A stretch of DNA of 64,000 nucleotides from a virus: IMG/VR virus record IMGVR_UViG_3300018080_000123, positions 49,607 through 113,606 of that record. The stretch is one strand, 5' to 3'. The notes under the pieces are model-generated. The model had not been told where the DNA came from. It saw nothing but the letters and a program-made list of their open reading frames with translations, and ran no database searches. Positions within the stretch are counted from its first letter, which is position 1, and each line of letters starts with the position of its first letter. This document shows, piece by piece, positions 5,709-40,200 of the stretch. Position numbers and translations under genes: made by a program.

Positions 5709-7175
5709 TTATGAACGCCCAATGTTCTTCACGATACAATTCTTGCGAGGTGTATACATATGAAGAGCACCGTACATCAGCTGCATCCATCGATAGTTCG
5801 TACCAAGCAATGCAAGGTCGATCTTCATCATGGTAAGAAGCTGTTTGAACGCAAAGTTGTCCTCGTTTACCTGCATGAGGTAAGCTTTGGACAAACCAGG
5901 CATACTAGCGTTGAAGTCAATATCCAAATCACGGAAGTCACCGTCACCAGCGTGGAAGTTTGCAGGCTTCACGCGGCCGATAAACTCATGATTGCTCGAC
6001 CCAGCCTTGGGTGAGCGGAAGATATTGAAATACTGAACACCACTCGGATTCGAACCCGGGAGAATATCCAGCACGACTTTGTCGCCAGCGGCCACGGTAA
6101 CTGCCTTAGCAGCGCTTGCCAACGTTTCACCGTCGGAATACACTGCTGAACACTTATACTCGTAAGCGCCAACGTCAACAGCCGCAAACTGAGAACTACC
6201 AGAAGCCGGGCTGTTGTCGCCTGAGTTCGCATCCTGAAGGGTAGGGGCCGATTCAGCTGAAACGGCCGCAGCCAACGGAATACGACGAGGACGCTGGAAC
6301 ACGCCAGACTTAAGGTTGAAAGTACCAGAACCGGAAACGAACTGCTTCACAACGTAACCAGCTTTTCCTTCCATACCGAGCGTATTGATGCGCTCCTTGG
6401 CATAGAAAGCACGACTGAAGTCACTGTGGGCTTTCGTATCCATATACATATCCGTGCACATACCGAAATTGTTGGCCTGAACGAGGGCTGCCTCTTCGAG
6501 GATTTCCTCATCCAAAACCTCTCCACTCTGGAGATCATTTCGTTTGTCGAGGATGATGGTATCTGCGCCACTCAGCACATTGTAACCATCAAAGGCCTGA
6601 GCTTTAAACTCAGCCTGGCTCTCTTTGTCGCCAATCTGCTTATCAATACCGTCGAATTCGAGGCCATTGATTGAACTGTCGGCTGAAAAGAGGGCTCGCT
6701 CAAGCTGGGCCAGAATCCAAAGAGCACCATTCTTGATCTCTCTCTGAACGATCGGACCATGAGCTTGCCTAACCAGCATAACGTCGTGGTTAATCTGTTT
6801 CTGAACGCCCATGTACTTGATCTGCACCACGTTTCGGTCATAACCGGAATCCGCAGTTGCTGGAGCCGAGGCCATTGTGAAAAATGGAGGAATCTGGGCG
6901 CCATAACTGTTGTTCGTATTCGCTTGTTCAACCGTGTTGTATGCAGGAGTCTTCGGAATATCATTCCAAAGAAGCAGGTGCTTTTGTTCGTGGGTCACCA
7001 CTCGGAGGGTCTTATCCAAAGATTCGACCTGGAGAGCGGGAGCACCTGTAAAATCACCCGGAAGAGTATCCGAATAATTTTGGCTTGCAAAGCTGAGGGC
7101 TTTGCTGATTTCTTCAAGAAGCTGGGGAGCATCAGCTCCAAAACCAGTCAATGAAGAAGGATTGCTATTTTGCAT
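5709..7175 (-). CDS. major capsid protein, SPO1/Twort-like
   Basis: N-arm KAL...G-x2-ALQVESLD, LWNDIPKTPAYNTVEQ, GLEFDG and a beta-sandwich insertion; GC-richer codons typical of a highly expressed gene. Confidence 0.9.
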   Translation of the reverse strand: MQNSNPSSLTGFGADAPQLLEEISKALSFASQNYSDTLPGDFTGAPALQVESLDKTLRVVTHEQKHLLLWNDIPKTPAYNTVEQANTNNSYGAQIPPFFTMASAPATADSGYDRNVVQIKYMGVQKQINHDVMLVRQAHGPIVQREIKNGALWILAQLERALFSADSSINGLEFDGIDKQIGDKESQAEFKAQAFDGYNVLSGADTIILDKRNDLQSGEVLDEEILEEAALVQANNFGMCTDMYMDTKAHSDFSRAFYAKERINTLGMEGKAGYVVKQFVSGSGTFNLKSGVFQRPRRIPLAAAVSAESAPTLQDANSGDNSPASGSSQFAAVDVGAYEYKCSAVYSDGETLASAAKAVTVAAGDKVVLDILPGSNPSGVQYFNIFRSPKAGSSNHEFIGRVKPANFHAGDGDFRDLDIDFNASMPGLSKAYLMQVNEDNFAFKQLLTMMKIDLALLGTNYRWMQLMYGALHMYTPRKNCIVKNIGRS

Positions 7176-9895: not shown

Positions 9896-11851
9896 CTATT
9901 TCTTTCTGGCTTTTTCAATTTCCGCCTTTTTTAAGCTATGCTTAGCGTCCCAACGCCTAAGAAATTCCTTCTCACTGATGTTATACTTTGTTGGGTTCTT
10001 TTTCTTTGCCTCTTGAAACATCTTAAGAGCAACGCCACGATTACTAGCTATTCTCCCAGGCCCGCGATCGGCAAATGCCTGTCTTTGGATAGCTCTTGCT
10101 GACGTCCCTGGACCGGGCTTACGGCCGCTTCCAGGGCCGCCCTTTTCAAAAAGCTTGGCTCGCTGTTTCTTTTTCTCCTGTTCTTTCTTCCAGCTTTCTC
10201 CGGCTCTATATTCAGAAATCTTTTGTTTAGATTCTATTGCTCTATCAACCTTCTTTCCTTGATCTCGCGCTTGATTAAAATGACTGGTAGCTTTAACATT
10301 TTTTCCTTCTGCGACTGCACTGTGGAAATCGGCTAGATGCTCGTGATATTTTGCTTTCTCTTTAGCAATCCCGCTACCAGAAACAGGAGCTCCTCCCTCA
10401 GTGCGACTTGGCTTAGATCTCTTCTCAGCTGCTTCTGCTTCCTTTCTGTGAGCGGCAGCAGCGTCTTTATGATCCTCTTTCGACCAATCATGATGATAGC
10501 CTACTGTATACCCGCTGTGACCTTTACCGTGTGAGGAATAAATAGGTTTGCCCGACTTCGTTCTTCCTATTACTTTTCCGCCTCTGGAGCCTTCTCCTGC
10601 TGCTTTATCGAGAGCTTCCGAAATCGCTTCAACGATTACGCTTTTAATGAAATGCTTCCTATCTTCTTTACGCGTAACAATTTTGGGCTTGAAATCTTCG
10701 CCAGGCTGGGCTTGATGATATTCAACGCGAGAAACATGTTCTTGATATGGAATGTGTAAGCTATTAACTGCTTCTTTAAAACGATTTAAGTGCCCGGGAG
10801 TATGAAATGAGTCTCCATGCTCACTAATTATCTTTCCATGCTCATCTAAAAGTTTTTGAATTTTCTTGTACGTCTCGTTAGCATGGCTTTCGACAGCATC
10901 TCTACCTGGAGCATTATGTTCGCCCGCTCCTCGCTTTTTTCTTGGAGCCTTATCTTTTGCTCCCATGCGACGGGCCTTTTCGAGGACACTTAAAAGGGTC
11001 ATTAAATTACTTTTTTTGACTCTTACTGCGCCCGGTGAAGGGGCGGAGGAGGCGACATCCCCTATCACCGGTTGACTAGCCACTGAAGGACTAGCCAGGG
11101 AAGAATCTTCATCTGTATATCCTAAAAGCTCGCCATCCTCCGACTTAGCAAGGGTTGGATTATCGTCGTAAGTAGAAAGCTCTACTGCTTCACTGTCCTT
11201 TTTCTTTTTCTTCTTTTCGCCATCCTGAATTTTATCTGCCTGACTTGCGCCTTCGGCCTGAATCTTTTCTACCTCACCCTCTCCCACACTTTCAAGAATA
11301 CAGGCCTTATCAATTTCTTCAATAGTATCTGAGCACTCATTAACTTCAAACCTCTCAACAGATAAAGATTTGGCAATCTCTGCATAAGTGCTTGTATTGA
11401 CTGGATCAAGTGTTAAGGCGACTTTCTCCACTCTCGCCCTTGCAATAACGCTCTTATCAATATCGTCTCGTTTAACAATCTTTCCCTCAATTGACATTTG
11501 CACTCTGTTCTTATCTGCTTTCTTCAACGAGCGCATAATGTTATAGAAGGCCTGAGCGCGGGGTTGGTGCTTAAAAAGATAGCCCTCAACATACAACCCG
11601 TTCATTGTGTTTTGGGCATAATCGATCTTACCGAGAACATTTTCTGGGCCCTTTTGATGGTCGTTATTAAAAAGTCCTTTTCCGTTTTTCAACGGACCAA
11701 TATCGAGCCCCGACTGCTGAACCACTTCACCTTGTAAATCCTTATCACCTGTGGAAGCAATTCCTTTAATGCGCCATTCGTCTTCGTTCTCGCCTTTGGC
11801 GAGCTCGACGGGCACAAAAAATTTGAAGGTGTCTTGGTCGCTTTTCCCCAT
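9896..11851 (-). CDS. prohead protease with a long modular C-terminal extension
   Basis: IKGIASTGDKDLQGEVVQQSGLD, FNNDH, MSIEG and VALTLDPVN motifs in the first ~165 aa. Confidence 0.85.
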   Translation of the reverse strand: MGKSDQDTFKFFVPVELAKGENEDEWRIKGIASTGDKDLQGEVVQQSGLDIGPLKNGKGLFNNDHQKGPENVLGKIDYAQNTMNGLYVEGYLFKHQPRAQAFYNIMRSLKKADKNRVQMSIEGKIVKRDDIDKSVIARARVEKVALTLDPVNTSTYAEIAKSLSVERFEVNECSDTIEEIDKACILESVGEGEVEKIQAEGASQADKIQDGEKKKKKKDSEAVELSTYDDNPTLAKSEDGELLGYTDEDSSLASPSVASQPVIGDVASSAPSPGAVRVKKSNLMTLLSVLEKARRMGAKDKAPRKKRGAGEHNAPGRDAVESHANETYKKIQKLLDEHGKIISEHGDSFHTPGHLNRFKEAVNSLHIPYQEHVSRVEYHQAQPGEDFKPKIVTRKEDRKHFIKSVIVEAISEALDKAAGEGSRGGKVIGRTKSGKPIYSSHGKGHSGYTVGYHHDWSKEDHKDAAAAHRKEAEAAEKRSKPSRTEGGAPVSGSGIAKEKAKYHEHLADFHSAVAEGKNVKATSHFNQARDQGKKVDRAIESKQKISEYRAGESWKKEQEKKKQRAKLFEKGGPGSGRKPGPGTSARAIQRQAFADRGPGRIASNRGVALKMFQEAKKKNPTKYNISEKEFLRRWDAKHSLKKAEIEKARKK

Positions 11852-11941
11852 CGTTTCTCCAGATTTATGAACGGATTTGTAGAGTGGTCAATATTTAATT
11901 ATAGTATAACATGGGGTATTTTTTAAATTAAATTGTGCAAA

Positions 11942-12274
11942 TTAGTTATCACCAAACTCGCCTAGCTCTTTCATAATCTTGACAATCTGTGTCCGGAAGT
12001 TCTTCTTTGCCTCTTCCTCACGCAAAGCAATATTGTTGATCGATGTTGCCGTCAACTTGGCCACCTCTTCCAATGTATGTTCTCTTCCATTGTCCAACAT
12101 ATATTTGAAGAAGCAATAGTTGGCCTTTCGATCATCCACATACCAAACACACTCATTCTTGGCACAAGGTAGGACATTAAACCGGCCTGATTTCATCTTC
12201 TCAGCCTTCCGCCTTCCCATGCTACAAACCCGAGTAGGATACTTATCCAGTTTTCGAGGACATCTCTGATCCAT
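11942..12274 (-). CDS. sigma region-4-like HTH protein with Cys-rich N-terminus
   Basis: HTLEEVAKLTATSINNIALREEEAKKNFR resembles sigma4.2 TLEEVG...TRERIRQIExxALxKLR. Confidence 0.55.
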   Translation of the reverse strand: MDQRCPRKLDKYPTRVCSMGRRKAEKMKSGRFNVLPCAKNECVWYVDDRKANYCFFKYMLDNGREHTLEEVAKLTATSINNIALREEEAKKNFRTQIVKIMKELGEFGDN

Positions 12275-12359
12275 TTGACAAAACCTATAATTTGTCGGGA
12301 ATTTATCTGGCCTATTTATGACACATTAATAGACCACTAATGGCCACTAATATCAAGTA

Positions 12360-12632
12360 TTAATGACGGAGCCACCAAAATCTTTGCCCAGCTTCTTCAT
12401 TTTGCATAACCCAGCGATCAAGAACATTTTCTCCATCACACTTCTCGCATACGAGAAAATTAATACAGCTTCTAGATACCGCATAAACCCAGCGCCAAAC
12501 ATCTCCTACCTCAAACCTATGACCACACATATAACATCGAAAACCATCTCCACTCTCTCTCGGTCCCCATTTTGCTTGAACATCTTTTTCTGTTGCAACT
12601 CTAGGCTTCTGATCTACAAAGCTAGTAGTCAT
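12360..12632 (-). CDS. Zn-binding hypothetical protein
   Basis: FRCYMCGH...VCEKCD, AGGAG SD. Confidence 0.55.
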   Translation of the reverse strand: MTTSFVDQKPRVATEKDVQAKWGPRESGDGFRCYMCGHRFEVGDVWRWVYAVSRSCINFLVCEKCDGENVLDRWVMQNEEAGQRFWWLRH

Positions 12633-12649
12633 TTTTATCTCCTGTATAG

Positions 12650-12916
12650 CTACTCTGCAGCTGACTCTTCTTTTTTCTTCTTCTGTATAACGGGGTTTTC
12701 TTCGTTATAAATAGGCAAACAAGTTCTACACATCCAATATCGTTTATCTCTCGTTTTCCTCGTCTTTCTAGGTTTCCCACATCCATCACATTTGATATTG
12801 GCTATTGCACGTCTGCGATAGAATCTAATAAGCTCAAATGCTCCTTCTGCAGCTATTCCTGCAAAGAAGATTATCATAAACCATATGGTGTACTCTATCA
12901 TAGATTCGGCCGGCAT
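12650..12916 (-). CDS. membrane-anchored Zn-ribbon protein
   Basis: N-terminal TM segment, CDGC...CRTC. Confidence 0.5.
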   Translation of the reverse strand: MPAESMIEYTIWFMIIFFAGIAAEGAFELIRFYRRRAIANIKCDGCGKPRKTRKTRDKRYWMCRTCLPIYNEENPVIQKKKKEESAAE

Positions 12917-12918
12917 TT

Positions 12919-13191
12919 TTATTTCTTGTAATCCTCTAAGATATGGCCTTTCGTTGCCAGGTAATCTGCAAAACCTGGATCTATTTGTCCAAGCACGTAT
13001 ACACTCCCTGACTCAGTTCGGGCTGTCAACCGCTCGGGGTCAAACTCTGTCACATTCGATGTAATGATTCGCTTTCCATTCTCAAAATTTGGATTCCCAT
13101 GAACCTCCCCTGCAAGAGCCCTTCGCCACTGCTCGGGGGCCTTGTACGGATCACCAATTGACACTACAAATGACCAATTCTCTAACTTCAT
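12919..13191 (-). CDS. conserved hypothetical phage protein
   Basis: LENWS...PYKAPE...GKRIITS...TESGSVYVLG. Confidence 0.6.
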   Translation of the reverse strand: MKLENWSFVVSIGDPYKAPEQWRRALAGEVHGNPNFENGKRIITSNVTEFDPERLTARTESGSVYVLGQIDPGFADYLATKGHILEDYKK

Positions 13192-13203
13192 CCTTTTCCC
13201 CTC

Positions 13204-13437
13204 CTAATACTTCTCCGGTAACGTGTCAAGCTCTGGGCTACAGCCACAGCACTGCGTATCCCCACTTAAGGCAAGATCTGTCTTTTCTGACAAATTCCTG
13301 AGAAATTCAATCAACCCTTTCTTATTAAATTCCAGATCAGCGAGCTCTCCATTATTATAATGAGCTTTAACTAGCCCCTGTTCAATGGCCCAGTCCCAAA
13401 TGTTCTGCCCTTCATCTTTTTTATACTTGTTTGTCAT
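13204..13437 (-). CDS. hypothetical protein (start moved to MTNKY)
   Basis: AAGGAG SD upstream of the ATG. Confidence 0.5.
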   Translation of the reverse strand: MTNKYKKDEGQNIWDWAIEQGLVKAHYNNGELADLEFNKKGLIEFLRNLSEKTDLALSGDTQCCGCSPELDTLPEKY

Positions 13438-13633
13438 CGTCTTTCTCCTTATCATCAAAAGACTCTTGATACGAAATATGAGCAACATGAACGCCTTCAC
13501 TATAGAACGTTTTAACGCTTCCTATCACAGCTCCTTTTATCTCAAGAATTTCTACAATTGCCCGCTCCAGCCTATCTTCAAATCCAATATCGTGCTCATC
13601 TCTTACAACTTTAATTCTAAAAACGCGTGTCAT
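13421..13633 (-). CDS. hypothetical protein
   Basis: ATGA-coupled to the metalloprotease gene. Confidence 0.5.
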   Translation of the reverse strand: MTRVFRIKVVRDEHDIGFEDRLERAIVEILEIKGAVIGSVKTFYSEGVHVAHISYQESFDDKEKDDDKQV

Positions 13634-14301
13634 TTTTCCACTCTCCTCTTATCGATCTTCTCTAAAATCTTACTTTTATCCTCGCAATATTTGTCCCAGT
13701 GTTTGTCACATAGACCTATCTTTCCAAGCTCCGGTACCATTACCCAACATTCCAGCTGCATCTTACAATACTTAACACTACACCTCAGATCTTTATCTTC
13801 ATAATCTTGAAAAAAGCCTTTTTGAGCAGTGCCAGCAAATTCTGCTTCAATGTTTTGCCTATACAATTCTGCCGCTCCCTCCAGCGCATATCCTCTTTCA
13901 TATTTGTACTTTCCCTCGTATGCTCTCTCCATCAACTGTTCCCCAACCTTGTCAACATATCTCTCCGCTCTTAATCCAATTTGTTTTGCTACATCATATG
14001 TCAAAGATCTGTTATGATACCGAGCAAACTTTCTATCTAACTTACACTGCCAGTGTCCAAGCTCATGGAACAGGTGATTTAAAAATCGCTCTACATTCGT
14101 AAAACGACCCTTAGAGTCTCTCATGCTAATTTTGATTTCTTTTGTCTCCAGATTGATCATAGCACCGCCGCATGTCGTCCAATCAAAGATCAATCCCAGC
14201 CCGCTTCTCAAAGCGATATCGATTCCTTTAGCTACATCTGGATGTTTCAAAAATCTATTCACAATCCACCTTTGTGAATCCGCCCGTAAAACTAATCGCA
14301 T
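13630..14301 (-). CDS. HExxH zincin metallopeptidase-like protein (ImmA/IrrE-like) with C-terminal Zn finger
   Basis: HLFHELGHWQ, downstream AERYVD (third-ligand Glu), CSVKYC...LCDKH. Confidence 0.6.
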   Translation of the reverse strand: MRLVLRADSQRWIVNRFLKHPDVAKGIDIALRSGLGLIFDWTTCGGAMINLETKEIKISMRDSKGRFTNVERFLNHLFHELGHWQCKLDRKFARYHNRSLTYDVAKQIGLRAERYVDKVGEQLMERAYEGKYKYERGYALEGAAELYRQNIEAEFAGTAQKGFFQDYEDKDLRCSVKYCKMQLECWVMVPELGKIGLCDKHWDKYCEDKSKILEKIDKRRVEK

Positions 14302-14617
14302 ATCCGAGGCGGCGATCTCTTTCTTTCCTTTTCCAGTTAACTCTCCTCACCTCTCCATATACTCTAAACGTGCTAGGTCCATACCAATTAGGATGCTTCA
14401 GTTTGACAAAAAGAACAACCTCCGCTCGAGGCCTAATCTTAATCTGATCCTCTTCTTTCACAATGATAAAGCAACCGCCAACGTTAAAATCATATACCGA
14501 CCCCTTAGCAACTATCGTTCTAGTTTCCATATCCATCATTGCTGCATTACTGCCAAGGAAGGTGAGAAGTCTGGGTTTCTTTCTTTTCTCTTCTTTATTT
14601 TCCATCCTCTGTTCCAC
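14255..14617 (-). CDS. stand-alone PilZ-domain protein (c-di-GMP receptor)
   Basis: EKRKKPR (RxxxR switch), YDFNVGGCFI ([D/N]xSxxG-like, Ser to Asn), GEVRRV and GYAISF C-terminal strands, about 120 aa. Confidence 0.75.
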   Translation of the reverse strand: MEQRMENKEEKRKKPRLLTFLGSNAAMMDMETRTIVAKGSVYDFNVGGCFIIVKEEDQIKIRPRAEVVLFVKLKHPNWYGPSTFRVYGEVRRVNWKRKERDRRLGYAISFTGGFTKVDCE

Positions 14618-14636
14618 TTTAAACCTTTACCTCTCT

Positions 14637-14644
14637 ATTATACA
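14637..14644 (-). promoter_or_regulatory. -10-only promoter motif TGTATAAT upstream of the PilZ gene
   Basis: Motif sits at the gene junction, about 20 nt before the start codon. Confidence 0.5.
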
Positions 14645-15000
14645 TCATCATCATATCTTTGTCTGGTTATCCAACTAGCTACTTTTGAGATTATCTTTTC
14701 CATGGCGCCCGATTCGTGACAAACCAACTCTAAGTAATAATCATGGTGATATTCTTTCAAGTCACTAATGATCATAAAAAGACTAAAATAAGGATCAGGC
14801 TCTTCTGCTTCTAACTCATAATAGTACAAAATATCAAGAGCATCAATGATCGGAAGAGACATCAGATCGGCGATATAAGACTGTCTGTCTTTTTGCAAGA
14901 TCTCTTGAACCTCTCCAATCATCCGCTCAAGTTTCCTCTCTTTATAAGTCCTGAGATCAGTTACTGGTTTTTTCGGATCCATGCCTGTAATTCCATTCAC
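14638..15000 (-). CDS. hypothetical protein
   Basis: ORF within the diguanylate cyclase operon. Confidence 0.5.
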   Translation of the reverse strand: MNGITGMDPKKPVTDLRTYKERKLERMIGEVQEILQKDRQSYIADLMSLPIIDALDILYYYELEAEEPDPYFSLFMIISDLKEYHHDYYLELVCHESGAMEKIISKVASWITRQRYDDDV

Positions 15001-15652
15001 GCTTAACCGCAGCCAAAAACTCTTTCACCGTTTGCCAGCGGGTCATTTCTCTGCCGGATGTTTTCACAAAATAAACGGGATAATGAATATAAATCTGATA
15101 TAGATTATCAAAATAAGCATAAATTTTGTAGGGACCTTCATAAAACCAAGTATTATACCACTTCCACTCGGTTTTTCCTGGTGTTAGAATTCCACAATAA
15201 GCAAGGTAATCCAAAACTCTTTCTTCTCGAACTTTTTGCATCTCCTCTCTCACTTCCTCATACGGCCTATCACCAAACAATTCAGGAGTAGCTGTGCTCC
15301 AAACCGGTTTTCGATTTTTCATCTTCTCTTTGTGCTTTTTAGACATTTCTTTTTCATCCGCAACTTCAAAAGGAAAAACTCTTAAATCGTGCTCATAATA
15401 GATCTCGATGTCTGAGCCAACGAGCTCAGCAATTTTTCCTAACCAATTACGATCTTTATCCAGATCGACATCTCCATACCAAACGACCTCGCCATCGACT
15501 ACTACATTTGAATTATAAACTGCCATTGCCGGCCCTCGACTTTTCGATGCGCTCACAAGACGCCCCGGACGACCGAGAAGAATACTCAAAATTGCTCCAG
15601 GGTCTTTATCTGAACACAGAGCTTGAATCTTTTTTTTAATTTTTGTTCCCAT
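14957..15652 (-). CDS. hypothetical protein
   Basis: 231-aa ORF with YNSNVVVDGEVVWYGDVDL. Confidence 0.6.
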   Translation of the reverse strand: MGTKIKKKIQALCSDKDPGAILSILLGRPGRLVSASKSRGPAMAVYNSNVVVDGEVVWYGDVDLDKDRNWLGKIAELVGSDIEIYYEHDLRVFPFEVADEKEMSKKHKEKMKNRKPVWSTATPELFGDRPYEEVREEMQKVREERVLDYLAYCGILTPGKTEWKWYNTWFYEGPYKIYAYFDNLYQIYIHYPVYFVKTSGREMTRWQTVKEFLAAVKREWNYRHGSEKTSN

Positions 15653-15845
15653 TTTTTCTCTCCTCTATTTCGTTAAGCCGACATAACCAAGTAAACAGCT
15701 TAGCAATTCGACATTCATAAAGAGCTATCCGCTCTAAATTTCCTGGTCTAGCTCTTTCAAGCGGATCCCAGAAAAGCTTATTTATTTTTTCTTGAAGCTG
15801 GTCTCGTTTTCTTATTACCATTGCTTTCATTGGATGAATGTACAT
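15636..15845 (-). CDS. hypothetical protein
   Basis: Overlaps the 3' end of the cyclase gene. Confidence 0.45.
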   Translation of the reverse strand: MYIHPMKAMVIRKRDQLQEKINKLFWDPLERARPGNLERIALYECRIAKLFTWLCRLNEIEERKNGNKN

Positions 15846-16473
15846 GTCTAATCACCCCATGGCCATAGCCTTCATGGCTAAAATCCATAATTGTAGTAAA
15901 TACTAATGAATCTTTTTTTTCTTTAGCGATATACATGCCCCGATCAGCCGCTGTAATTAGCTCTTCTGCTTTGTCTCCTTTACTATATGATACAACCCCC
16001 ATACTGGCCGTAACCTTAATTGAATCATACTTAAACCTCATTTTCCTGTGGAGACGTTCGTAAAAATCAGCTGCTTTGTTAGGAGATTTGTTTAAGCTAA
16101 TCACAACAAATTCTTCTCCTCCCCAGCGAAATGCCTTATCATAGGATCGAGTTTGCTGACGTAAAGTTTCTCCTACTTTTTTAAGAATTTTATCTCCTAC
16201 TGCATGCCCATGAGTGTCGTTGATCTGTTTAAAGTTGTCCAAATCAATAAAACCAAGAGATAAAACTCCACCAATCCGATCGCATTGGTTGGTCAACTCT
16301 TCAAAATACCTATAGAAAGACTTGCGATGATGCAAACCTGTAAGCTCATCGCAAAAACTAATGCCAAATTTTTCTAGAAAATCAATGAGTTTTGTAGCGA
16401 GAATGAGCGAACAATCGTTTTTGTGCTCATCGATAAATAGAGTCAGTTCGCCTGTGAAATTGTCCTTTTTCAT
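15778..16473 (-). CDS. diguanylate cyclase (GGDEF domain)
   Basis: DELTGL, DLDNFKQINDTHGHAVGD, I-site RSYD-x5-GGEEF, VTASMG and ADRGMYIAK; all catalytic motifs present. Confidence 0.92.
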   Translation of the reverse strand: MKKDNFTGELTLFIDEHKNDCSLILATKLIDFLEKFGISFCDELTGLHHRKSFYRYFEELTNQCDRIGGVLSLGFIDLDNFKQINDTHGHAVGDKILKKVGETLRQQTRSYDKAFRWGGEEFVVISLNKSPNKAADFYERLHRKMRFKYDSIKVTASMGVVSYSKGDKAEELITAADRGMYIAKEKKDSLVFTTIMDFSHEGYGHGVIRHVHSSNESNGNKKTRPASRKNK

Positions 16474-16486
16474 AGCTCCTACTTAT

Positions 16487-16515
16487 ATTATAGTAGACCT
16501 CTATCAAAAAGGCAA
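16487..16515 (-). promoter_or_regulatory. sigma70-type early promoter of the cyclase operon
   Basis: TTGCCT-N17-TATAAT-ATAAG, then AGGAG SD and ATG. Confidence 0.8.
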
Positions 16516-16544
16516 GCTAAATTTTTATGAGAGATTCCAACAGG

Positions 16545-16739
16545 TTACACTAAACTTAGAAAATCCCCCTCAGAAATCTTCTTTCCTGCTGCTAATCTCT
16601 CTAAATACTGGGCAGCTAACGTTCCGATTTTTACGTTATTTTCTACCCAATGATAATCATCAACCTTGCGAAAAACGCGTTTTCGAGTCCCATTGCTTGT
16701 AACTTGCTTAATGACTATCACCAAGCCTCCTTCCATCAA
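16545..16739 (-). CDS. hypothetical protein
   Basis: Short packed ORF. Confidence 0.4.
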   Translation of the reverse strand: MMEGGLVIVIKQVTSNGTRKRVFRKVDDYHWVENNVKIGTLAAQYLERLAAGKKISEGDFLSLV

Positions 16740-17029
16740 CAGTCCTTCTTATTTCTTGTATCAAAATAGTTTAAAATTCTATCATAAACAATCTCTTTCT
16801 CTTTCTCTAGTAGGCTTTGTCGTCTTATAAATTCATCGCTTGTTCGTCTATAATATTCGATCAAACTCTTAGTCAATCTATCACTAAGATCTGCTAACTG
16901 AATCATCTTAATGGAAGGGCTTTGGCCTTCGGCTGTAAGAAGCCCGTTCCTCTGAGCGGACAGTTTCTCAATTCGTCTAATTATATCTGAGATCTCTCTT
17001 AAGTAATTCTCATACAGAGGAATCATCAT
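16736..17029 (-). CDS. hypothetical coiled-coil protein
   Basis: Packed ORF. Confidence 0.45.
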   Translation of the reverse strand: MMIPLYENYLREISDIIRRIEKLSAQRNGLLTAEGQSPSIKMIQLADLSDRLTKSLIEYYRRTSDEFIRRQSLLEKEKEIVYDRILNYFDTRNKKDC

Positions 17030-17210
17030 CCGGGTCCTCTAATCTCACAACAGGTTTCAACTCATGAAGGCCCTTCTCGCTAAACAACGTTACGAGATAA
17101 ATATCGTCGTATTTGACAACCGCTTCTTCAGCTTCTTCTTTAGTTGTAAACAATAAATAATGCGGATCTTTCTTAAAAATCACACAATAATGAAATTTTT
17201 CTTGCTTCAT
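17010..17210 (-). CDS. hypothetical protein
   Basis: ATGA-coupled ORF. Confidence 0.45.
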   Translation of the reverse strand: MKQEKFHYCVIFKKDPHYLLFTTKEEAEEAVVKYDDIYLVTLFSEKGLHELKPVVRLEDPDDDSSV

Positions 17211-18037
17211 TTGTTTTCTTCCAAAAATTTAACAATCTCCTTGTGGACAATCATCCACCCAATACTCGTAGGAGATTGATAGTTTCCAAAAAGACCGGCA
17301 AAAACCAAACCGGACAGCTCTCCCTTATCATTAAAGACTCCCGACCCGCTATTGCCTGGATAAATGGGAGCCGAAATTAGTCGCGCTTCCGAACCAAGAA
17401 CTTCAGCATAGCTTCCGACCCTTCCTTCGGCGACAGAGCCAAAAATTCCAAGAGGATTTCCGACAACAAAGATCTGATCTCCAAACTTAACTGGCTCTTT
17501 AGCAATCTTAACAGGGGTAAGTTTTTTTCCCTGCGAAACCACTTTTAACAAACACAAATCTGCTAATGACGATTTTCTATGAACTTTTGCATATAGATAG
17601 CTTGTATGTTCGGGGCTCTTAAGAGCCAAACGAAAGAACGTGCCAGGGGCTCTTTTATTAGCCGCCATATCGCAGACATGATTATTTGTTAACACTAGAT
17701 CGGGACTAATTGCAACCCCCGTACCAAAACCAACATTTGTCATCTCTACTCTCACAAACCCTGCCGATGGTTTATCAAGATATCCTTTTGTCGTACTTTC
17801 GGGCCCTTTAGTAGGAAACTTAATAGTATTCCTTTGAGGAATCATATTTCTGCCAACAGGATGTTGTAATGTTATTCCTTTTACAGTATGATTAACAGGA
17901 GTAGAGAGGGTCGAACGATCAATAAATTCGTCCAATTTAACAATTGTAGCGACATTTAATAGAAACATCGCCACCCCCGCAGCCAAATAAAAAACCACCA
18001 GTCCGATATTAAGAATTCGCGCAATTTTACTCAACAT
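17207..18037 (-). CDS. membrane-anchored trypsin-like (S1C) serine protease without PDZ
   Basis: TNNHV (His), ADLCLL (Asp), GNSGSG (Ser), N-terminal TM helix; start moved to MLSKI. Confidence 0.85.
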   Translation of the reverse strand: MLSKIARILNIGLVVFYLAAGVAMFLLNVATIVKLDEFIDRSTLSTPVNHTVKGITLQHPVGRNMIPQRNTIKFPTKGPESTTKGYLDKPSAGFVRVEMTNVGFGTGVAISPDLVLTNNHVCDMAANKRAPGTFFRLALKSPEHTSYLYAKVHRKSSLADLCLLKVVSQGKKLTPVKIAKEPVKFGDQIFVVGNPLGIFGSVAEGRVGSYAEVLGSEARLISAPIYPGNSGSGVFNDKGELSGLVFAGLFGNYQSPTSIGWMIVHKEIVKFLEENK

Positions 18038-18896
18038 TTGTATCTCCTTCTTGATTTTCTTTTTTCTCATTACTTTCTTCCCCAGCAATCTGACTCAATA
18101 CTTCTTCAGTGTTATCAAACTCTTTTTGTAAAGGCTCATACTCTTCTTTTTTAATCTCAACTGTGATCTCTCCTCCTGCAGGAATGCTAATCCTGTCACA
18201 TAGAGCCTTGTATAGCTTTTTCAGCTCGCTTGGTTTGGGAAGATTATCAAAGGTCCTTTTTCTCGGTCCTTTTCGGTAATTCCCTCTTTTTCGATATTCA
18301 ACAATCTCATCTATTAGCCCTAACTCGAGCGCTTCCTCTGCCGAAATAAAAATATCTTTTCCGGTACTAGTCAACCTATCATAAAATTTCTTATCGGGAT
18401 ATGAATTATCGGCATAAACTTGATTCAATTTTGACTGAATCCTTTGCTCTTCCTCTTGATATATTTTTTGATCCGCTAGCGTTCTGCAACCTGGGTCATT
18501 AGCTCCCTCATGTAACAGGACCCTTGTAAGCTTAGACAAATATCTTTCATCGCAACAGCACATAATCCATGTAGCAGAGCTTCCTACGTGGCCTTTCCCA
18601 TAAAATACAAACTTACAGCGAGTTTCTTGAATAGTGTCATGAAGAGCCATCATTGACTCTGCGCATCCGCCATAAGAATTCATATAAATAGTGATTGGTT
18701 TGCTACTCATCTCCTCCATGAGATGAATTCCCATAATAGCTACTTTAACTGAATCCTGATCAAAAGCGTTATAGCTGACTTCTTCGTCGTCAGGCTCTTT
18801 ATCCGTTGGTTTACCAAAATAGATTTTTCTATGAATAACATCCACACCCCATTTCATTAGATTGTCAAGCCAGTCAGCGTCTTTTCTTGTAGACAT
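18027..18896 (-). CDS. clpP: ClpP-like protease with C-terminal extension
   Basis: IYMNSYGG, VGSSAT (Ser), LLHE (His), KDIFISAEEALELGLIDEI (Asp). Confidence 0.8.
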   Translation of the reverse strand: MSTRKDADWLDNLMKWGVDVIHRKIYFGKPTDKEPDDEEVSYNAFDQDSVKVAIMGIHLMEEMSSKPITIYMNSYGGCAESMMALHDTIQETRCKFVFYGKGHVGSSATWIMCCCDERYLSKLTRVLLHEGANDPGCRTLADQKIYQEEEQRIQSKLNQVYADNSYPDKKFYDRLTSTGKDIFISAEEALELGLIDEIVEYRKRGNYRKGPRKRTFDNLPKPSELKKLYKALCDRISIPAGGEITVEIKKEEYEPLQKEFDNTEEVLSQIAGEESNEKKENQEGDTNVE

Positions 18897-18904
18897 AACG
18901 CCTC

Positions 18905-20227
18905 CTATTTCTTGTGTTCTAGCTCTAAATCATAAATTGGAATGATTTTATCTAACTCCTTGTTATTATCTACTTCTTTACTAAACTGAACTCGCCTAAT
19001 ATCTCCGCATGGATGTTTTTTTGTAGACTCCACGATTGTCTGAGATGAAATAGCGTAGTTGATACTTAGTGAGCTTGCAAACGGATCTTTTCCGGATAAT
19101 GTCGAATTAACAACAACATCGATTCCATTTTGTGTTTTAGCTTTTAGCTCCTGGTGAACGTGCCCTGCAAGAACGCCAGCAATAGGAGGATTCCCCTTTT
19201 TAATTTCTCCAGTATTAAATGACTCTATTTGATGTGTAAGGGCTTTAAAATTAATTGACTTCCCGGGAGCAGAAATAGCTGAAAATACCGTATCTCCGTG
19301 AACACCTATCAGACGACCACCAATCGTATCAATCATCACATACTGTGTTTTAGGAATAACGAATTTAACCCGACCAGCAAAAATCAACGATAGGGCATAA
19401 TAAACGGGATTAATTACGCTATCATATTTTTGTTGGTTAACTCTATTTCCGCCCTCTCTACGAAATGGCCAGTCTTCATGATTGCCAGGAATACCATAGA
19501 ATACAATCTCATCAAAAAAATTCAAAAGATACGAAATCATATGAAACAAAACATGTAGGGCCCCGTTCATTTGATGAACAATAAGATCAGTATCAATTCC
19601 CGTCTTGTTATGAATCTTACCATGATTAATATCGCCTAAAGAGGCTAAGTGAAGTTTTTTGGTGGCTGCCCTATGGGCAAGTTTATAGTTAGCAATTTCC
19701 TGGGCAAAGAATGCGCATCTCCTGCAGCCCTCTGTCCATCCAAAACTATTTGAATTCCCGACTTCATTACTATCGACCTTGAGACCAAGATGCCAGTCTG
19801 AAAACGGAGCAACCAACTCTCTTTTTTCTACAGTAGGGGCTTGAATCTTTTTAAGAAATCCTTTTATTTCTTTCTTATTAAGAACAACCGGACTTAACTT
19901 AAGATTTTTGATTGACTTGGCAAACTCTTCGGTCAAATAGGCCATTTCATAATCTTCAAGAATATTTTTTCTTTGAATTGAGCGTGCAAGACTCCTATAT
20001 TTATTTGCAACAATTGTTTCTGATGTTTTAAGAGTCTCTCCCAAATCAACCGCTTCTTCAAAAGCGACGTTCCATCCTCCGAAGAATTTTCTGATTAAAT
20101 GGTCTGATAAACCGGCTGAAACAAACTCTGTCTTCGTTGGCCGAGATCCTTTCAACTTATGTAAAGCAACTATCTTCTCTAGAATTTCTTTTTTGAGCTC
20201 TTTATTGCTTTTTTTCTTCATCCTCAT
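18905..20227 (-). CDS. calcineurin-like metallophosphoesterase with N-terminal helical DNA-binding-like repeat
   Basis: SDWHLG, LGDINHG, PGNHE, VHGD and AGHVH motifs. Confidence 0.8.
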   Translation of the reverse strand: MRMKKKSNKELKKEILEKIVALHKLKGSRPTKTEFVSAGLSDHLIRKFFGGWNVAFEEAVDLGETLKTSETIVANKYRSLARSIQRKNILEDYEMAYLTEEFAKSIKNLKLSPVVLNKKEIKGFLKKIQAPTVEKRELVAPFSDWHLGLKVDSNEVGNSNSFGWTEGCRRCAFFAQEIANYKLAHRAATKKLHLASLGDINHGKIHNKTGIDTDLIVHQMNGALHVLFHMISYLLNFFDEIVFYGIPGNHEDWPFRREGGNRVNQQKYDSVINPVYYALSLIFAGRVKFVIPKTQYVMIDTIGGRLIGVHGDTVFSAISAPGKSINFKALTHQIESFNTGEIKKGNPPIAGVLAGHVHQELKAKTQNGIDVVVNSTLSGKDPFASSLSINYAISSQTIVESTKKHPCGDIRRVQFSKEVDNNKELDKIIPIYDLELEHKK

Positions 20228-20507
20228 CTCCGCAATAATTAAAAATGATATTATCTGGCCTCATAGCCAGATAATCCTTGCCTTCTATATTAATTGTGTA
20301 AATTTTAAATTCATCGAGCTCAGCAAAGCAGACTCTTTTTCCCATAAGCTTAGAAATAGCTTCTTTAGGTTGTATGAATCCCGACACCTTTACAATCGTC
20401 CCTTCGTTGTTGTTTTGCTCTTTAGGCATAATAAGCCCTTTTTGCTCAGGGGCTTTATCTTTCTCAATAATAAGCCATCCATTCCAGACATCAATATTAT
20501 TTAGCAT
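20202..20507 (-). CDS. groES: co-chaperonin GroES-like
   Basis: About 100 aa; LIIEK, mobile loop KGLIMP, EGTIVKV, IEGKDYLAMRPDNI. Confidence 0.7.
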   Translation of the reverse strand: MLNNIDVWNGWLIIEKDKAPEQKGLIMPKEQNNNEGTIVKVSGFIQPKEAISKLMGKRVCFAELDEFKIYTINIEGKDYLAMRPDNIIFNYCGDEDEEKKQ

Positions 20508-35695: not shown

Positions 35696-35924
35696 TTTCC
35701 TCTTCCTCTCCGCTCAAATCGGTATGTTTTCTAAAACCATAGAGGGCCCCGATTGATCCTACAACCGTTGCAAAATCGGTTCCAGAAAACTCGCCAAGAG
35801 AAATTCCCTGAATTGTCATTCCCGATAGTAAAAGTTTGATAATTGACACAAAAAAAGCAATAACAAGTAAAGTAAGAGTGACGGACGATTTACTCGTTTT
35901 GGGGTCTCGGATCCACACTTTCAT
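35688..35924 (-). CDS. two-TM holin-like protein
   Basis: KSSVTLTLLVIAFFVSII and FATVVGSIGALYGFRK, charged tail. Confidence 0.45.
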   Translation of the reverse strand: MKVWIRDPKTSKSSVTLTLLVIAFFVSIIKLLLSGMTIQGISLGEFSGTDFATVVGSIGALYGFRKHTDLSGEEEESV

Positions 35925-36522
35925 AGTCTCCCTCCTGATCCCATTCGTTGACAAAATAATCCATTATCGTTTTAGCCATCGGATATTTCTCAAGCAATGG
36001 GCCATAATATTTGTCATTTAATTGACTAATAGTATTCTTATATACCTTGTTAAATTTAGTATTTCCACTACGGCGTTCTTCTGTTAAATAAATTAGCCGC
36101 TCAAGTAAATCTGCAAGATCAATAATTTCTCCCTCTATTCCATCTTTGCAGTTGAGAGTGGCTCGGCGAATATTCTTTTTAGCTTCTCTAGGTAAATGTA
36201 AGAGAGCCTCATCAAATAATTTTGTCTCAATTTGTTTAGTTTTGGCTCGCATTTCATCATCAAAATTTTTTGTAGGAGCAGGGATATCCCCCAGCATAGA
36301 TTCGGGGACATCGTGCCATGCAGCTTTAGAATAGATCGCTAACATATCTAATTTTTCTTCATTCTCTCCTCTTCGCGCATTTTCGCACTCGGCAATAATA
36401 GCAGCCAAACAAATGACAACATGACTATGAGCCGCAACAGACTGAGAACAATTGACTCTATGAGTTGAGTACCTTTTGATATACTGAAGATTAAGCAAAA
36501 TATTAAGTAGTTGATTCTTCAT
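35890..36522 (-). CDS. HD-domain deoxynucleotide phosphohydrolase (YfbR-like)
   Basis: IKRYS, QSVAAHS, WHDVPESMLGDIPAPTK and LADLLE. Confidence 0.85.
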   Translation of the reverse strand: MKNQLLNILLNLQYIKRYSTHRVNCSQSVAAHSHVVICLAAIIAECENARRGENEEKLDMLAIYSKAAWHDVPESMLGDIPAPTKNFDDEMRAKTKQIETKLFDEALLHLPREAKKNIRRATLNCKDGIEGEIIDLADLLERLIYLTEERRSGNTKFNKVYKNTISQLNDKYYGPLLEKYPMAKTIMDYFVNEWDQEGDYESVDPRPQNE

Positions 36523-37247: not shown

Positions 37248-37255
37248 ATTATACA
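37248..37255 (-). promoter_or_regulatory. -10-only promoter motif TGTATAAT
   Basis: Overlaps the dnaE stop codon, ahead of the SD. Confidence 0.5.
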
Positions 37256-40200
37256 ACAATACACTTAATTGAATTGAGAGCTAGTCCAAATTTGCTAGTT
37301 GATCCTACTATTTCAACCATTATACCGGGAACTAACTTATCTTTCACCGCCGGTAGAATATCGCTCCAAACGTAAACTGTTATGACATTATCTCCGTTTT
37401 TGACCTTCACTCGATAAAAATCTTTATCGGTTTTTGTCTTTGCTTTCTGAACAAGGTCGATTAAACCTCCTATGCGAACAGTCTGGTTATCAATAGGAGG
37501 AATTTTAGTATAATCCCCAATTGTTCCCTTTGTAAAAAGAGTATCAAATCTTCTTACCCAATCGGTCCTATAAATTGAAAGAGCATTTTTCTTAAGTTCT
37601 TCAAAAGCGAAGGTATTATCAATATTGTCAAACTTCTTTGGAACGTCTTCTTTTCTCAAAAAATAGAAATGCATGATGAGATCTCTAATGCTTTTCTCTG
37701 GCTCTATATTTCTAAATGTATTCGATAAAATTAAATTTTCAATCACATTCTTCTTTACGGTTCTTTTTTCTATTCGAGTCCAAAAATCCTTGAAACTATT
37801 AAAAGGTCTTTTAGAAATAATCTCTTCAATTGCTTCATCGGCAACTTGGGTAACATAAGCGAGGGGCATAACCAGTTTCTCATTTTCGTTAAGTCTGAAC
37901 TCTTTTTCGCTTTCGTTGATTTCTGGTTCAATTAGAATATCGCGTAAAAAACTGTTCTTATCGTCTTCAACAAACCCCTTAAAGTCATCCGTCGAGCAAT
38001 TCTGGAATACGGATGCCCACCACTCTAACGGATAATAGGTTTTTAGATATTGACATATATATCCTATATACGAATAACAAACAGAATGAGATCTATTGAA
38101 GCAATAGCTCGCGTAGTTTTCCATTTCTTTAAGCAAAGTATGAGCTCCATCCTCGCTCATTGGAGGATTAAGCTGTGTCGTTGCGTAATTAATGAATTGA
38201 TCTTTTGCCTCTTGTTTTAGTCCCCCAGGCTTTGAAATAGCTTTTCTAATATGATTCGATTCTACGGCGGTAAAACCCCCTAAAGACTGAAAAATTCTCA
38301 TGATTTGCTCTTGATAGACCATCAGCCCATATGTATCTTTCAAAATTGGCTCTAAAGCAGGATGAACATAAGTTATTGCCTTTTCTCCTAATTTTCGATC
38401 AACATACTTCTCGTCCATTTTTCCAAGCCTGTATGGTCCCGGTCGACCTATTGCTGTAATAATTGCTAGGTCATTAAACGTATCTGCTTTTGATCTTTCT
38501 AAAAGAGGAGTCGACAAAGCCGTATTAAACTGAAATACTGACTCAGTATCTCCTTTTCTAAACTTGTCTAGAACCTTTTTATCGGTCGGCTCTAAACTAT
38601 AAATATCTAGATCTATATTTCTTCTCAATTTGAGTAATCTAAGACACCCTTGAATATCTCTCAGAGTATTCAGAGATAGAATATCAAACTTGACTAATCC
38701 CGCTTTTTCTAGATATCTTCCATCATATCCAGTCATTGGGGTTGCATCAAGTGCGTTTGGCTTATTTATTACAACCGGAATATAGTCTGTTGGATTTCCA
38801 GGAACAATTACAATCGCGCAAGGATGAACTTTATTAGTCTTGATTTTGCCTGCCATCTTTAACGCTGCTTTGAACACATCTTGATTGGCAACAAAAAATC
38901 CCTGAAGCTCTTCATTCCCCTCGCTAAACAAAAACTCTTCAAACCATTCACGCTCATTAACTCCAGGGCCAGAGGACGGAATGTCTTTAGTAATTGTATT
39001 TATGTATGCATAGTCATAAGCTTCTTTTCGAAGAACCCTGTAAGCATCTTTAATAGCTGTTTTTGTTTTGATGCCCTGCAGAATCCCAACTCTAATTACT
39101 TTATCATGTCCATATTTTTGTCTCAAATAACCAAACACTGATTCCTGATCAGAAAAGTCTAGATCAATATCGGGATAATCAGTTCTACTAATATCAAGAA
39201 ACCTTTCAAACGGCATATCATATTTGATAGGATCTAGTTTAGTAATATCTAATGCATAAGAAAGCAAAGATCCTCCAACAGATCCACGACCTGGCCCAAC
39301 AAGGATATCATTAGCCCTACACCATCGAACAATATCTTCAATAATAAGGAAGTAGTCAGCAAAACCTTTCTCTTTTATTACCGTCAGCTCGAAGTTCAAT
39401 CTTTGAATATATTCATCTCGGATAGGAATTTTCTTATTCTTTTTAACAATAGTAAGTAAGAGGTCCTCAGAGGTCATTTTTTCTTTTGATAAAGGATGGT
39501 CTTCAATAGGAAATCTAACAACCTCAGGCCTTCTTCCTAACTCATATATCTCTACCTTATCTGCTATTTCATTGGAATTCTGAACCGATTGGTTGAATTC
39601 TTCTTTAGTAAAAATCTTATCGTGCCCGTGCTTCTTGAACTCTTCCCAAGATTCTTCAGCGGTCATCAAATAATGATTATCAGTAGCAAAATGCCATCCA
39701 TCTTTTCCTGCAAACGAATTAAGAATAAAGATATCTTGAATCTGCTTATCTTGTTTACTCGGATAATGAACATCCAAAGTATGAATTAGTTTCACATTGT
39801 GTTTGCGGGCCCATTCAATCATCTGTCTATTGTGATCGATTTGAGAATTCTTTTCAGTCTTTTCAAAATTTTTATACTCCCTATTCCACTGCGTACTAAG
39901 ATCAAGCGGCTGAATCTCAGCATAAAAATCATCGCCAAGCTCTTTTTTAAACTCAATGAAGAGCTCTTCGCTTGTGACAGAAGATGCAATGCATGCAGTA
40001 GTAACGATTAGGCCTTCTTTATGATCAAACAGATCTTGAATACTAATCAAAGGCCGGTAGTTGAACGTCTTAAATCCTAACGAAGCAAGCTTCAATAAAT
40101 TAAGATACCCGGCATGGTTCTTAGCAAGAGCAACAATATGTCGTCTTTCAATTTTTTTCTTTGTCTTTTTTTCAGGAAGAAAAAACTTTTCGCACGTATA

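Follow-up and report, generated by a model that had tools for sequence, protein, structure and literature searches.

We found that a complete phage genome codes for both a GGDEF diguanylate cyclase domain, of the type that makes the bacterial second messenger cyclic di-GMP (c-di-GMP), and a predicted PilZ domain, of the type that binds it, in one tightly packed string of genes. The genome is the IMG/VR virus record IMGVR_UViG_3300018080_000123 (113,606 bp), and the stretch analyzed here, referred to as the window, comprises the 64,000 nucleotides from base 49607 to base 113606 of this record (positions are counted from its first letter). Both genes had been pointed out previously from the letters and the open reading frames (ORFs) alone (the original prediction). 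We give a little better than an even chance to a phage c-di-GMP module in which a cyclase with no input domain, limited by its own product, would raise c-di-GMP, and the PilZ adaptor encoded by the same phage would read it.

The GGDEF cyclase and the PilZ protein

The cyclase ORF matches the GGDEF profile PF00990 with 132.5 bits, far over the cut-off of 23.8, along residues 40 to 187 (profile positions 2 to 158 of 161), and TIGR00254 with 141.2 bits (cut-off, 37.4), confirming the identity proposed for it. The motifs DELTGL and DLDNFKQINDTHGHAVGD were read in the translation, followed by RSYD, five residues, and GGEEF; hence, the RxxD inhibitory site (I-site) stands exactly where it had been described, five residues before GGEEF. 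The protein was aligned with 119 database homologs (120 sequences in all), and its functional positions were read against PleD, with the roles of the PleD residues taken from previous work (PMC12943098 and PMC7288161). L44, D77, K82, N85, D94, and L97 are kept and correspond to PleD L294, D327, K332, N335, D344, and L347; GGEEF (118 to 122) corresponds to PleD 368 to 372, and K184 to PleD K442. The I-site R109-S-Y-D112 is equivalent to PleD R359xxD362, and the secondary R140 to PleD R390. The metal-binding D77 is invariant (120/120 homologs), while position 94 (PleD D344) is Asp in 102 and Ser in 18 of the 120. Since the window protein has Asp at this position, it should be of the type that uses GTP and makes c-di-GMP rather than of the Hypr type that makes cyclic GMP-AMP (cGAMP), as had been argued from the Asp of GHxxGD, and a reading of this protein as a Hypr cGAMP synthase was rejected.

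The layout is simple, with a 40-aa leader, the GGDEF domain (40 to 187), and a basic C-terminal tail of 40 aa that adds to the original description of a short leader without a sensor domain, which was borne out by the profile scan. There is no sensor, receiver, or transmembrane domain in this ORF. The cyclase is 80% identical to its ortholog in the sister phage, with a ratio of nonsynonymous to synonymous substitution rates (dN/dS) of 0.12. Catalytic activity is likely but by no means assured.

The second ORF scores below threshold on Pfam, with 14.4 bits against a PF07238 cut-off of 22.5, and this was its only family match. However, homologs in two related phages, designated G035 and G003, pass the same cut-off (34.4 and 23.6 bits, respectively) and match the profile of the phage family with E values of 1.4e-16 and 5e-6. 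In a comparison between profiles, five bacterial genomes supplied 26 bona fide PilZ domains, which were built into a reference profile, and hhalign aligned the phage family to these domains with 96% probability (P = 4.8e-9, 97 columns), while 20 column-shuffled controls reached at most 1.1%. Against the reference profile, HMMER placed R12 and R16 (R12-K-K-P-R16) on the RxxxR motif, D43 and G48 (D43-F-N-V-G-G48, 27 residues after R16) on the DxSxxG motif, and the C-terminal blocks G-x-V-x-R-V-N-W and G-Y-A-I-x-F on the matching PilZ strands.

The predicted structure points in the same direction. The AlphaFold2 model (predicted local distance difference test [pLDDT] score of 75) is a six-stranded barrel with a low-confidence N-terminal arm (residues 6 to 19). 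The top 17 Foldseek matches of this model are all solved PilZ domains (probability 1.0, best E value 2.5e-3), and so are the top 12 obtained with VIA-align (Z scores of 7.7 to 9.6), with MotI at 9.6, followed by YcgR, PA0012, MrkH, and Alg44, each close to 8.6; structures other than PilZ (generic split barrels and tail-tube proteins) score 7.4 or less. In the ESM Atlas, PilZ was found in 26 of the 30 nearest clusters (score, 0.95). A search of PDB sequences with the profile of the PilZ family returned only chance matches (E > 1).

Therefore, considering the profile-profile comparison, the fold, the motifs, and the homologs over the Pfam cut-off, we assign this ORF to the PilZ domain despite its own sub-threshold score. 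RxxxR, the Asp and Gly of the second motif, and the predicted fold agree with a PilZ domain, but the Ser of that motif is Asn45 here. It belongs to a very small family. Exhaustive searches recovered only the sister ortholog (76% identical) and one cluster about 41% identical (P0123, with the full-length member P0124), and comparison with 1.8 billion representative proteins turned up no cellular relative. In an alignment of four of the PilZ proteins, RxxxR and the Gly of the second motif do not vary, and the G035 homolog keeps both. The second motif itself varies (DFNVGG in the window, DFSAQG in the sister, NISSDG in P0124, DISENG in G035, and DICSGG in G003), its first residue being Asp or Asn. 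The ORF has a dN/dS of 0.13 between window and sister. Binding of c-di-GMP by the window protein is probable from these motifs, with a caveat for the Asn.

Gene string, promoter, and phage origin

The cyclase is the first gene behind the promoter and is followed by a 69-aa ORF, a 231-aa ORF, a 120-aa ORF, the PilZ gene, and a gene for an HExxH protein, all on one strand and tightly packed (Table 1). As predicted, the PilZ gene lies four genes downstream of the cyclase on the same strand, being the fifth of the string. All seven gene pairs compared between the window and the sister phage are under strong purifying selection, with dN/dS values of 0.06 to 0.13 (Nei-Gojobori; dS is near saturation).

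Table 1. Promoter and genes of the c-di-GMP string in the window
Feature	Position	Strand	Basis and conservation
Sigma-70-type promoter (TTGCCT-17 nt-TATAAT), with an AGGAG ribosome-binding site and the cyclase ATG behind it	16487..16515	-	Read directly; scan
Stand-alone GGDEF diguanylate cyclase, 231 aa	15778..16473	-	PF00990, TIGR00254, 120-homolog residue check
ORF of 69 aa, function unassigned	15636..15845	-	No family match; 85% identical in sister, dN/dS 0.07
ORF of 231 aa, function unassigned	14957..15652	-	68% identical in sister, dN/dS 0.13
Acidic ORF of 120 aa, function unassigned	14638..15000	-	No family match; 75% identical in sister, dN/dS 0.06
Single-domain PilZ-like protein, 120 aa (116 aa from ATG at 14605)	14255..14617	-	Profile-profile comparison, fold, motifs
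HExxH (zincin-like) protein, 223 aa, Cys-rich C terminus	13630..14301	-	HELGH; 82% identical in sister, dN/dS 0.06

The promoter, its ribosome-binding site, and the start codon were read just as described in the original prediction, and in a promoter scan the site had 10 matches out of 12. Its hexamers and spacing are identical in the sister phage, where the flanks differ. Promoter-like sites are not enriched as a class in the region (24 found versus 21.6 expected). Nevertheless, this one belongs to a small family of near-identical sites on the coding (minus) strand with the consensus CTTGC[CA]YTTTT...YTATAATWTAR, the first base of the -35 hexamer being at 1051, 16515, 40782, 47690, and 52214, and its members precede the helicase/GroEL block, a large ORF (37249 to 40401), and other nonstructural genes. 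The family probably represents a single temporal class among the promoters of the phage. Since it stands in front of replication-type and other nonstructural genes, it suggests that the cyclase string would be expressed by the host sigma-70 RNA polymerase along with early or middle genes.

The remaining genes of the string are less informative. The 69-aa ORF starts in another frame within the 3' end of the cyclase ORF, giving an overlap of 68 nt (15778 to 15845), and both frames are conserved in the sister. For the 231-aa ORF, there was no match in Pfam, PHROGs, NCBIfam, or PADLOC and no usable match in the ESM Atlas. The gene for the HExxH protein begins 47 nt before the PilZ gene ends. The protein had weak, sub-threshold matches to WLM and MPTase-PolyVal; its AlphaFold2 model (pLDDT, 36.5) was unusable, and it is only a possible member of the module. 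PADLOC gave no match for any gene of the string, and no tie to a known defense system was seen. Just upstream of the cyclase promoter (17207 to 18896), Pfam identified a membrane-anchored trypsin-like serine protease beside a ClpP-like protease; the latter has a long C-terminal extension, and the former has a weak PADLOC match to protease modules of defense systems.

A phosphodiesterase had not been seen in the window, and extending the search to the whole 113.6-kb genome gave the same result, with no match to EAL, HD_5 (HD-GYP), or the generic HD profile. An HD protein encoded at 35890 to 36522 was considered as an HD-GYP candidate and rejected, as it is a YfbR-like nucleotidase (107 bits).

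The phage origin of the segment deserves separate consideration, because several GenBank records of "phage" GGDEF genes are really host DNA (for example, ON470595, which carries DgcM, DbpA, and ZntB) and the PilZ ORF scores below the Pfam cut-off. The segment could thus have been host DNA misassembled onto a phage contig, or the small ORF might not have been a true PilZ gene. The record has direct terminal repeats and an estimated completeness of 100%. Nearly all window genes are on the minus strand, and PHROGs matches include the major head protein (5709 to 7175), the head maturation protease (9896 to 11851), an exonuclease (18905 to 20227), a DnaB-type helicase, and GroEL, so that phage genes on the same strand flank the cyclase-PilZ segment on both sides. 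The G+C content around the segment (0.39 to 0.41) is that of the rest of the window. A single public run was listed as holding the sequence, a DNA run of a sediment metagenome that is probably the source sample; no RNA run was listed. In the sediment run, read depth is even (41 to 57x over 11000 to 20500), contigs tile without joints, and one contig connects the PilZ and cyclase genes, reaching into the latter. Finally, contigs of the sister phage from two further metagenome assemblies show the identical order of exonuclease, cyclase, three uncharacterized ORFs, PilZ, and HExxH protein, with protein identities of 67 to 98%. Repeats and completeness, even depth, uniform G+C, and synteny with the sister make a host misassembly very unlikely; the record is a complete phage genome, and read mapping, named with the original prediction as a way to refute it, gave no sign of a host misassembly. 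Both ORFs are moreover under purifying selection, and the identity of the PilZ ORF is backed by profile-profile comparison, fold, and motifs. An artifact of either kind is thereby largely refuted and, in our view, nearly excluded.

One assembly of the sister phage breaks within the PilZ gene (Ga0180433 contigs of 29,314 and 70,393 bp), and the second assembly spans this break, which may reflect strain variation at the gene. No tyrosine integrase was found in the phage record; since the phage carries its own replication genes, it is probably virulent. Its host could be narrowed down very little: the nearest cellular GGDEF proteins (36 to 45% identity) are scattered over many phyla, no tRNA gene was found in the window, and the ESM Atlas neighbors of the PilZ protein give a weak hint of Thermodesulfobacteriota.

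Proposed action and evidence from related phages

In bacteria, c-di-GMP is the main switch between swimming and surface-attached life, and many of the structures that serve phages as receptors, among them pili, flagella, and exopolysaccharides, are under its control. In the module that we propose, host RNA polymerase would transcribe the string from its strong sigma-70-type promoter, of the class that precedes the replication and nucleotide metabolism blocks. Since the cyclase has no input domain, its expression, which would fall early or in mid-infection, should be enough for c-di-GMP to be made from GTP, and the RxxD I-site would cap the level reached by product inhibition. The raised c-di-GMP would act on host effectors, turning motility off and matrix production or adhesion on, and the phage PilZ protein, having bound c-di-GMP through RxxxR and D-x-(S/N)-x-x-G, would attach to a host or phage protein. 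The domain identities, the motifs, the order of the genes, their conservation and purifying selection, and the phage origin are computational results; from these we infer activity, ligand binding, cotranscription, timing, and each of the downstream effects, and it is on this basis that the phage probably takes over the switch between swimming and surface-attached life of its host. The outputs suggested in the original prediction (superinfection exclusion, induction of biofilm, or timing of the phage cycle) are speculative.

Several observations weigh against this proposal. The claim that every GGDEF catalytic element is present holds for GGEEF, for the metal- and guanine-binding residues, and for the I-site, but not for two other positions. 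D188 occupies the place of the phosphate-binding PleD R446, where the 120 homologs have 92 Arg, 16 Lys, and 3 Asp, and H49 lies in the LTGLxNRR turn, where 116 of the 120 have Asn. Both changes could reduce or alter cyclase activity. As the sister cyclase has the same D188 and H49, they are selected states rather than errors. Besides, GGDEF domains work as dimers, and the profile scan recognized no dimerization domain in the 40-aa leader (a two-copy complex prediction scored 0.02, which has no bearing on dimerization either way). On the PilZ side, apart from the sub-threshold Pfam score, the second motif is DxNxxG instead of the canonical DxSxxG, and Asn is not seen in place of this Ser in any of the 26 reference domains, two of which have Gly. 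As for the string, three uncharacterized ORFs separate the two genes, and a weaker promoter-like site, itself within coding sequence, is located immediately ahead of the PilZ gene, with its end at 14637.

The two substitutions in the cyclase also lend themselves to another explanation, in which the phage would read or soak up c-di-GMP rather than raise it. The GGDEF protein would be a weak or dead enzyme serving as an I-site receptor and the PilZ protein a second binder, so that free c-di-GMP would be lowered or reported. Phages are known to deploy sponges for nucleotide signals, and the window cyclase would suit such a role, having Asp for the phosphate-binding Arg and His for the conserved Asn (both shared with the sister), an intact RxxD I-site and R140, and no recognized dimerization or sensor domain. 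However, degenerate receptors usually lose several catalytic residues, whereas the window cyclase has retained GGEEF, the metal ligand D77, the transition-state Lys (K82), both guanine-binding residues (N85 and D94), and K184. The lack of Arg at the R446 position is shared with other homologs (28 of the 120 in total), and K186 and K187 adjoin D188 and could stand in for the Arg. The dN/dS of the cyclase fits an enzyme or a receptor equally. On balance, we regard such a sponge as quite improbable.

Related phages provide a further way to evaluate the cyclase-PilZ module. The clade defined by the major head protein comprises 203 IMG/VR relatives, many of them of 110 to 121 kb, of which 46 were searched, including the 70-kb contig of the sister phage. 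Among the 45 searched relatives other than the sister, five carry c-di-GMP genes, within a few kilobases of the head module; the head proteins of these five (G003, G035, G009, G011, and G051) are 40 to 47% identical to that of the window. In G003, a complete genome of 119 kb, and G035, a fragment of 49.6 kb, the PilZ homolog and the head gene are some 3 kb apart, with PilZ on the other side of the head gene compared with the window, and no GGDEF gene was found in either. Their homologs (L199 1486 to 1914 in G003 and L206 1495 to 1953 in G035) have a C-terminal helical extension of 30 to 40 aa, and the gene next to PilZ in G035 encodes an Rrf2-family regulator. G009 and G011 code for a different GGDEF protein (L092 10932 to 11651 and L091 12332 to 13159, respectively), N-terminally truncated without the LTGL turn. 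In its DxD motif the second Asp is replaced by Asn, and about 100 conserved aa extend its C terminus. No PilZ gene was detected in these two phages, a weak negative given that the same first-pass PF07238 filter also missed the PilZ of the window. A conserved 110-aa ORF precedes the GGDEF gene in both, and G009 also has integrase-like and Rrf2-like genes nearby. In the fifth, G051 (IMGVR_UViG_3300018080_007235, a fragment of 11.8 kb), a receiver-GGDEF response regulator is directly followed by an HD-GYP protein (HD_5, 96 bits). This pair of writer and eraser lies at L205 391 to 2364, beside the head-protein homolog, and comes from the same metagenome as the sister phage.

Thus, c-di-GMP genes (PilZ, GGDEF, and HD-GYP) recur in this one head-protein clade in changing combinations, which argues for recurrent selection. 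The proposed survey of cooccurrence found GGDEF together with PilZ in the window phage and its sister only, among the 46 relatives searched, and one gene or a different set in the five others that carry c-di-GMP genes. With PilZ but no GGDEF in some relatives, and GGDEF with no detectable PilZ in others, the two genes are not an obligate pair, which is another point against the module. The case of G003 indicates, in addition, that the reader need not depend on a writer encoded by the same phage. As for the original suggestion that the phage brings both, the two genes are indeed on the phage, co-oriented and, as the sequence suggests, under one promoter, but the PilZ protein need not rely on its own writer.

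The main rival explanation follows from this distribution. The window may simply have two independent accessory genes, a PilZ protein that the clade carries in any case and that would sense host c-di-GMP, and a cyclase for host manipulation that was acquired separately, both having come to share the variable region between the replication and head modules. The phages with PilZ and no GGDEF found (complete in the case of G003, and with an Rrf2 regulator beside the gene in G035), the different truncated GGDEF of G009 and G011 with no detectable PilZ, the pairing of receiver-GGDEF with HD-GYP in G051, and the location of PilZ on the other side of the head gene all speak for it. Separate acquisition is also suggested by the cyclase itself, which shares up to 45% identity with bacterial cyclases but 33% with the GGDEF proteins of its relatives. 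However, the window and sister phages hold both genes in one co-oriented string of overlapping genes with a conserved promoter, and both are under selection. Any PilZ protein in a cell with a running phage cyclase would meet its product, and Bacillus phage SP-15 (see below) also combines GGDEF with PilZ. We judge the independence of the two genes to be somewhat unlikely.

The cyclase-PilZ module could also be pictured more narrowly, as a private circuit in which only the divergent PilZ protein of the phage is tuned to the c-di-GMP level set by its own cyclase, and the adaptor controls a process on the phage side. Its targets could be the overlapping HExxH protease-like protein or neighboring proteins, and the process head maturation, the timing of lysis, or a block to superinfection. 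A closed circuit is weakened by the PilZ-only genome of G003, for the reason given above. The same reading has a broader part, that writers, erasers, and readers of c-di-GMP were taken up time and again, as a viral toolkit, by a whole clade of sediment phages of about 110 to 120 kb. Taken jointly, private circuit and toolkit seem unlikely to us.

If the module works as proposed, a second messenger at the core of bacterial life would be both written and read by viruses in the course of infection. This would bear on superinfection exclusion, on infected cells being retained within sediment biofilms, and on how the "auxiliary" genes of viromes are read.

Comparison with known systems

So far, phages were known to disturb c-di-GMP indirectly, by peptides that activate a host cyclase. 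The YIP peptides raise host c-di-GMP via YfiN in Pseudomonas aeruginosa (PMC8085984). As in our proposal, an early phage product raises c-di-GMP in the infected cell and alters motility and biofilm (PMC8085984), but YIP is a small peptide acting on a host enzyme, whereas the window phage encodes the enzyme itself and a receptor. A full-text search on phage-encoded diguanylate cyclases returned only these YfiN-interacting peptides, a weak negative, as most subscription journals are outside its coverage, and no analysis of a phage carrying both synthase and receptor was found in the literature searched.

Compared with bacterial modules, the catalytic domain and I-site of the window cyclase are those of cyclases of the PleD and WspR type, and the predicted fold of the window PilZ protein, a beta-barrel whose N-terminal arm carries RxxxR, is that of the adaptors MotI/DgrA, YcgR, MapZ/PA4608, PA0012, and Alg44. 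The differences are that the module is encoded by a virus, that its cyclase has no sensor or receiver and no matching phosphodiesterase was found in the genome, and that it has Asp at the R446 position, Asn at the PilZ Ser position, and a very divergent PilZ family. Mobile elements offer another parallel. DgcK and DgcL of SXT-type integrative conjugative elements are reportedly imported GGDEF cyclases that alter host motility and biofilm; unlike the window phage, which is of the virulent type, these elements are conjugative and reside in the chromosome, and we know of no dedicated PilZ partner for either cyclase.

In databases, phage GGDEF genes are present but little described. PHROGs has eight GGDEF-containing families, all labeled "unknown function," and 133 GenBank phage records gave GGDEF matches by tblastn, mostly unannotated fragments or host DNA. 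One candidate phage cyclase, ON470595.1 ("Escherichia phage vB_EcoS-683R6"), was rejected as Escherichia coli chromosomal DNA (DgcM, DbpA, ZntB, and TtcA). Records of this type inflate the counts of "phage" cyclases and were not counted as precedent. The window PilZ protein had no tblastn match in GenBank phages, and a PilZ-domain protein has been reported for Maribacter phage Panino.

The closest precedent is Bacillus phage SP-15 (KT624200.1), a jumbo phage that is in culture and whose DNA is hypermodified. The original prediction knew of no described phage with a cyclase-PilZ pair, but SP-15 is annotated with both. SP15_150 (L201 3926 to 4477) is a short canonical cyclase with RxxD, GGEEF, and AKESGRN, and SP15_170 (L204 4762 to 5115), located 14.7 kb downstream on the same strand, is a protein of about 117 aa that the depositors tagged as Pfam PilZ, with RxxxR and DISATG. 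In the genome paper, the cyclase appears in a figure legend only, and neither PilZ nor c-di-GMP is ever mentioned. A phage writer and reader of c-di-GMP therefore has a precedent in SP-15, unremarked in its paper, while the clade-wide pattern of c-di-GMP genes appears to be undescribed. Both SP-15 and the window phage are large and carry on one strand a short RxxD/GGEEF cyclase and a small RxxxR PilZ protein. They differ in that the SP-15 genes are far apart, its PilZ has the canonical DxSxxG, and its cyclase, 35% identical to that of the window, has an N-terminal hydrophobic helix and lies in a cluster of sugar/glycosyltransferase and teichoic-acid genes. As SP-15 can be grown and its cyclase and PilZ protein are both canonical, the idea is open to testing in a laboratory host.

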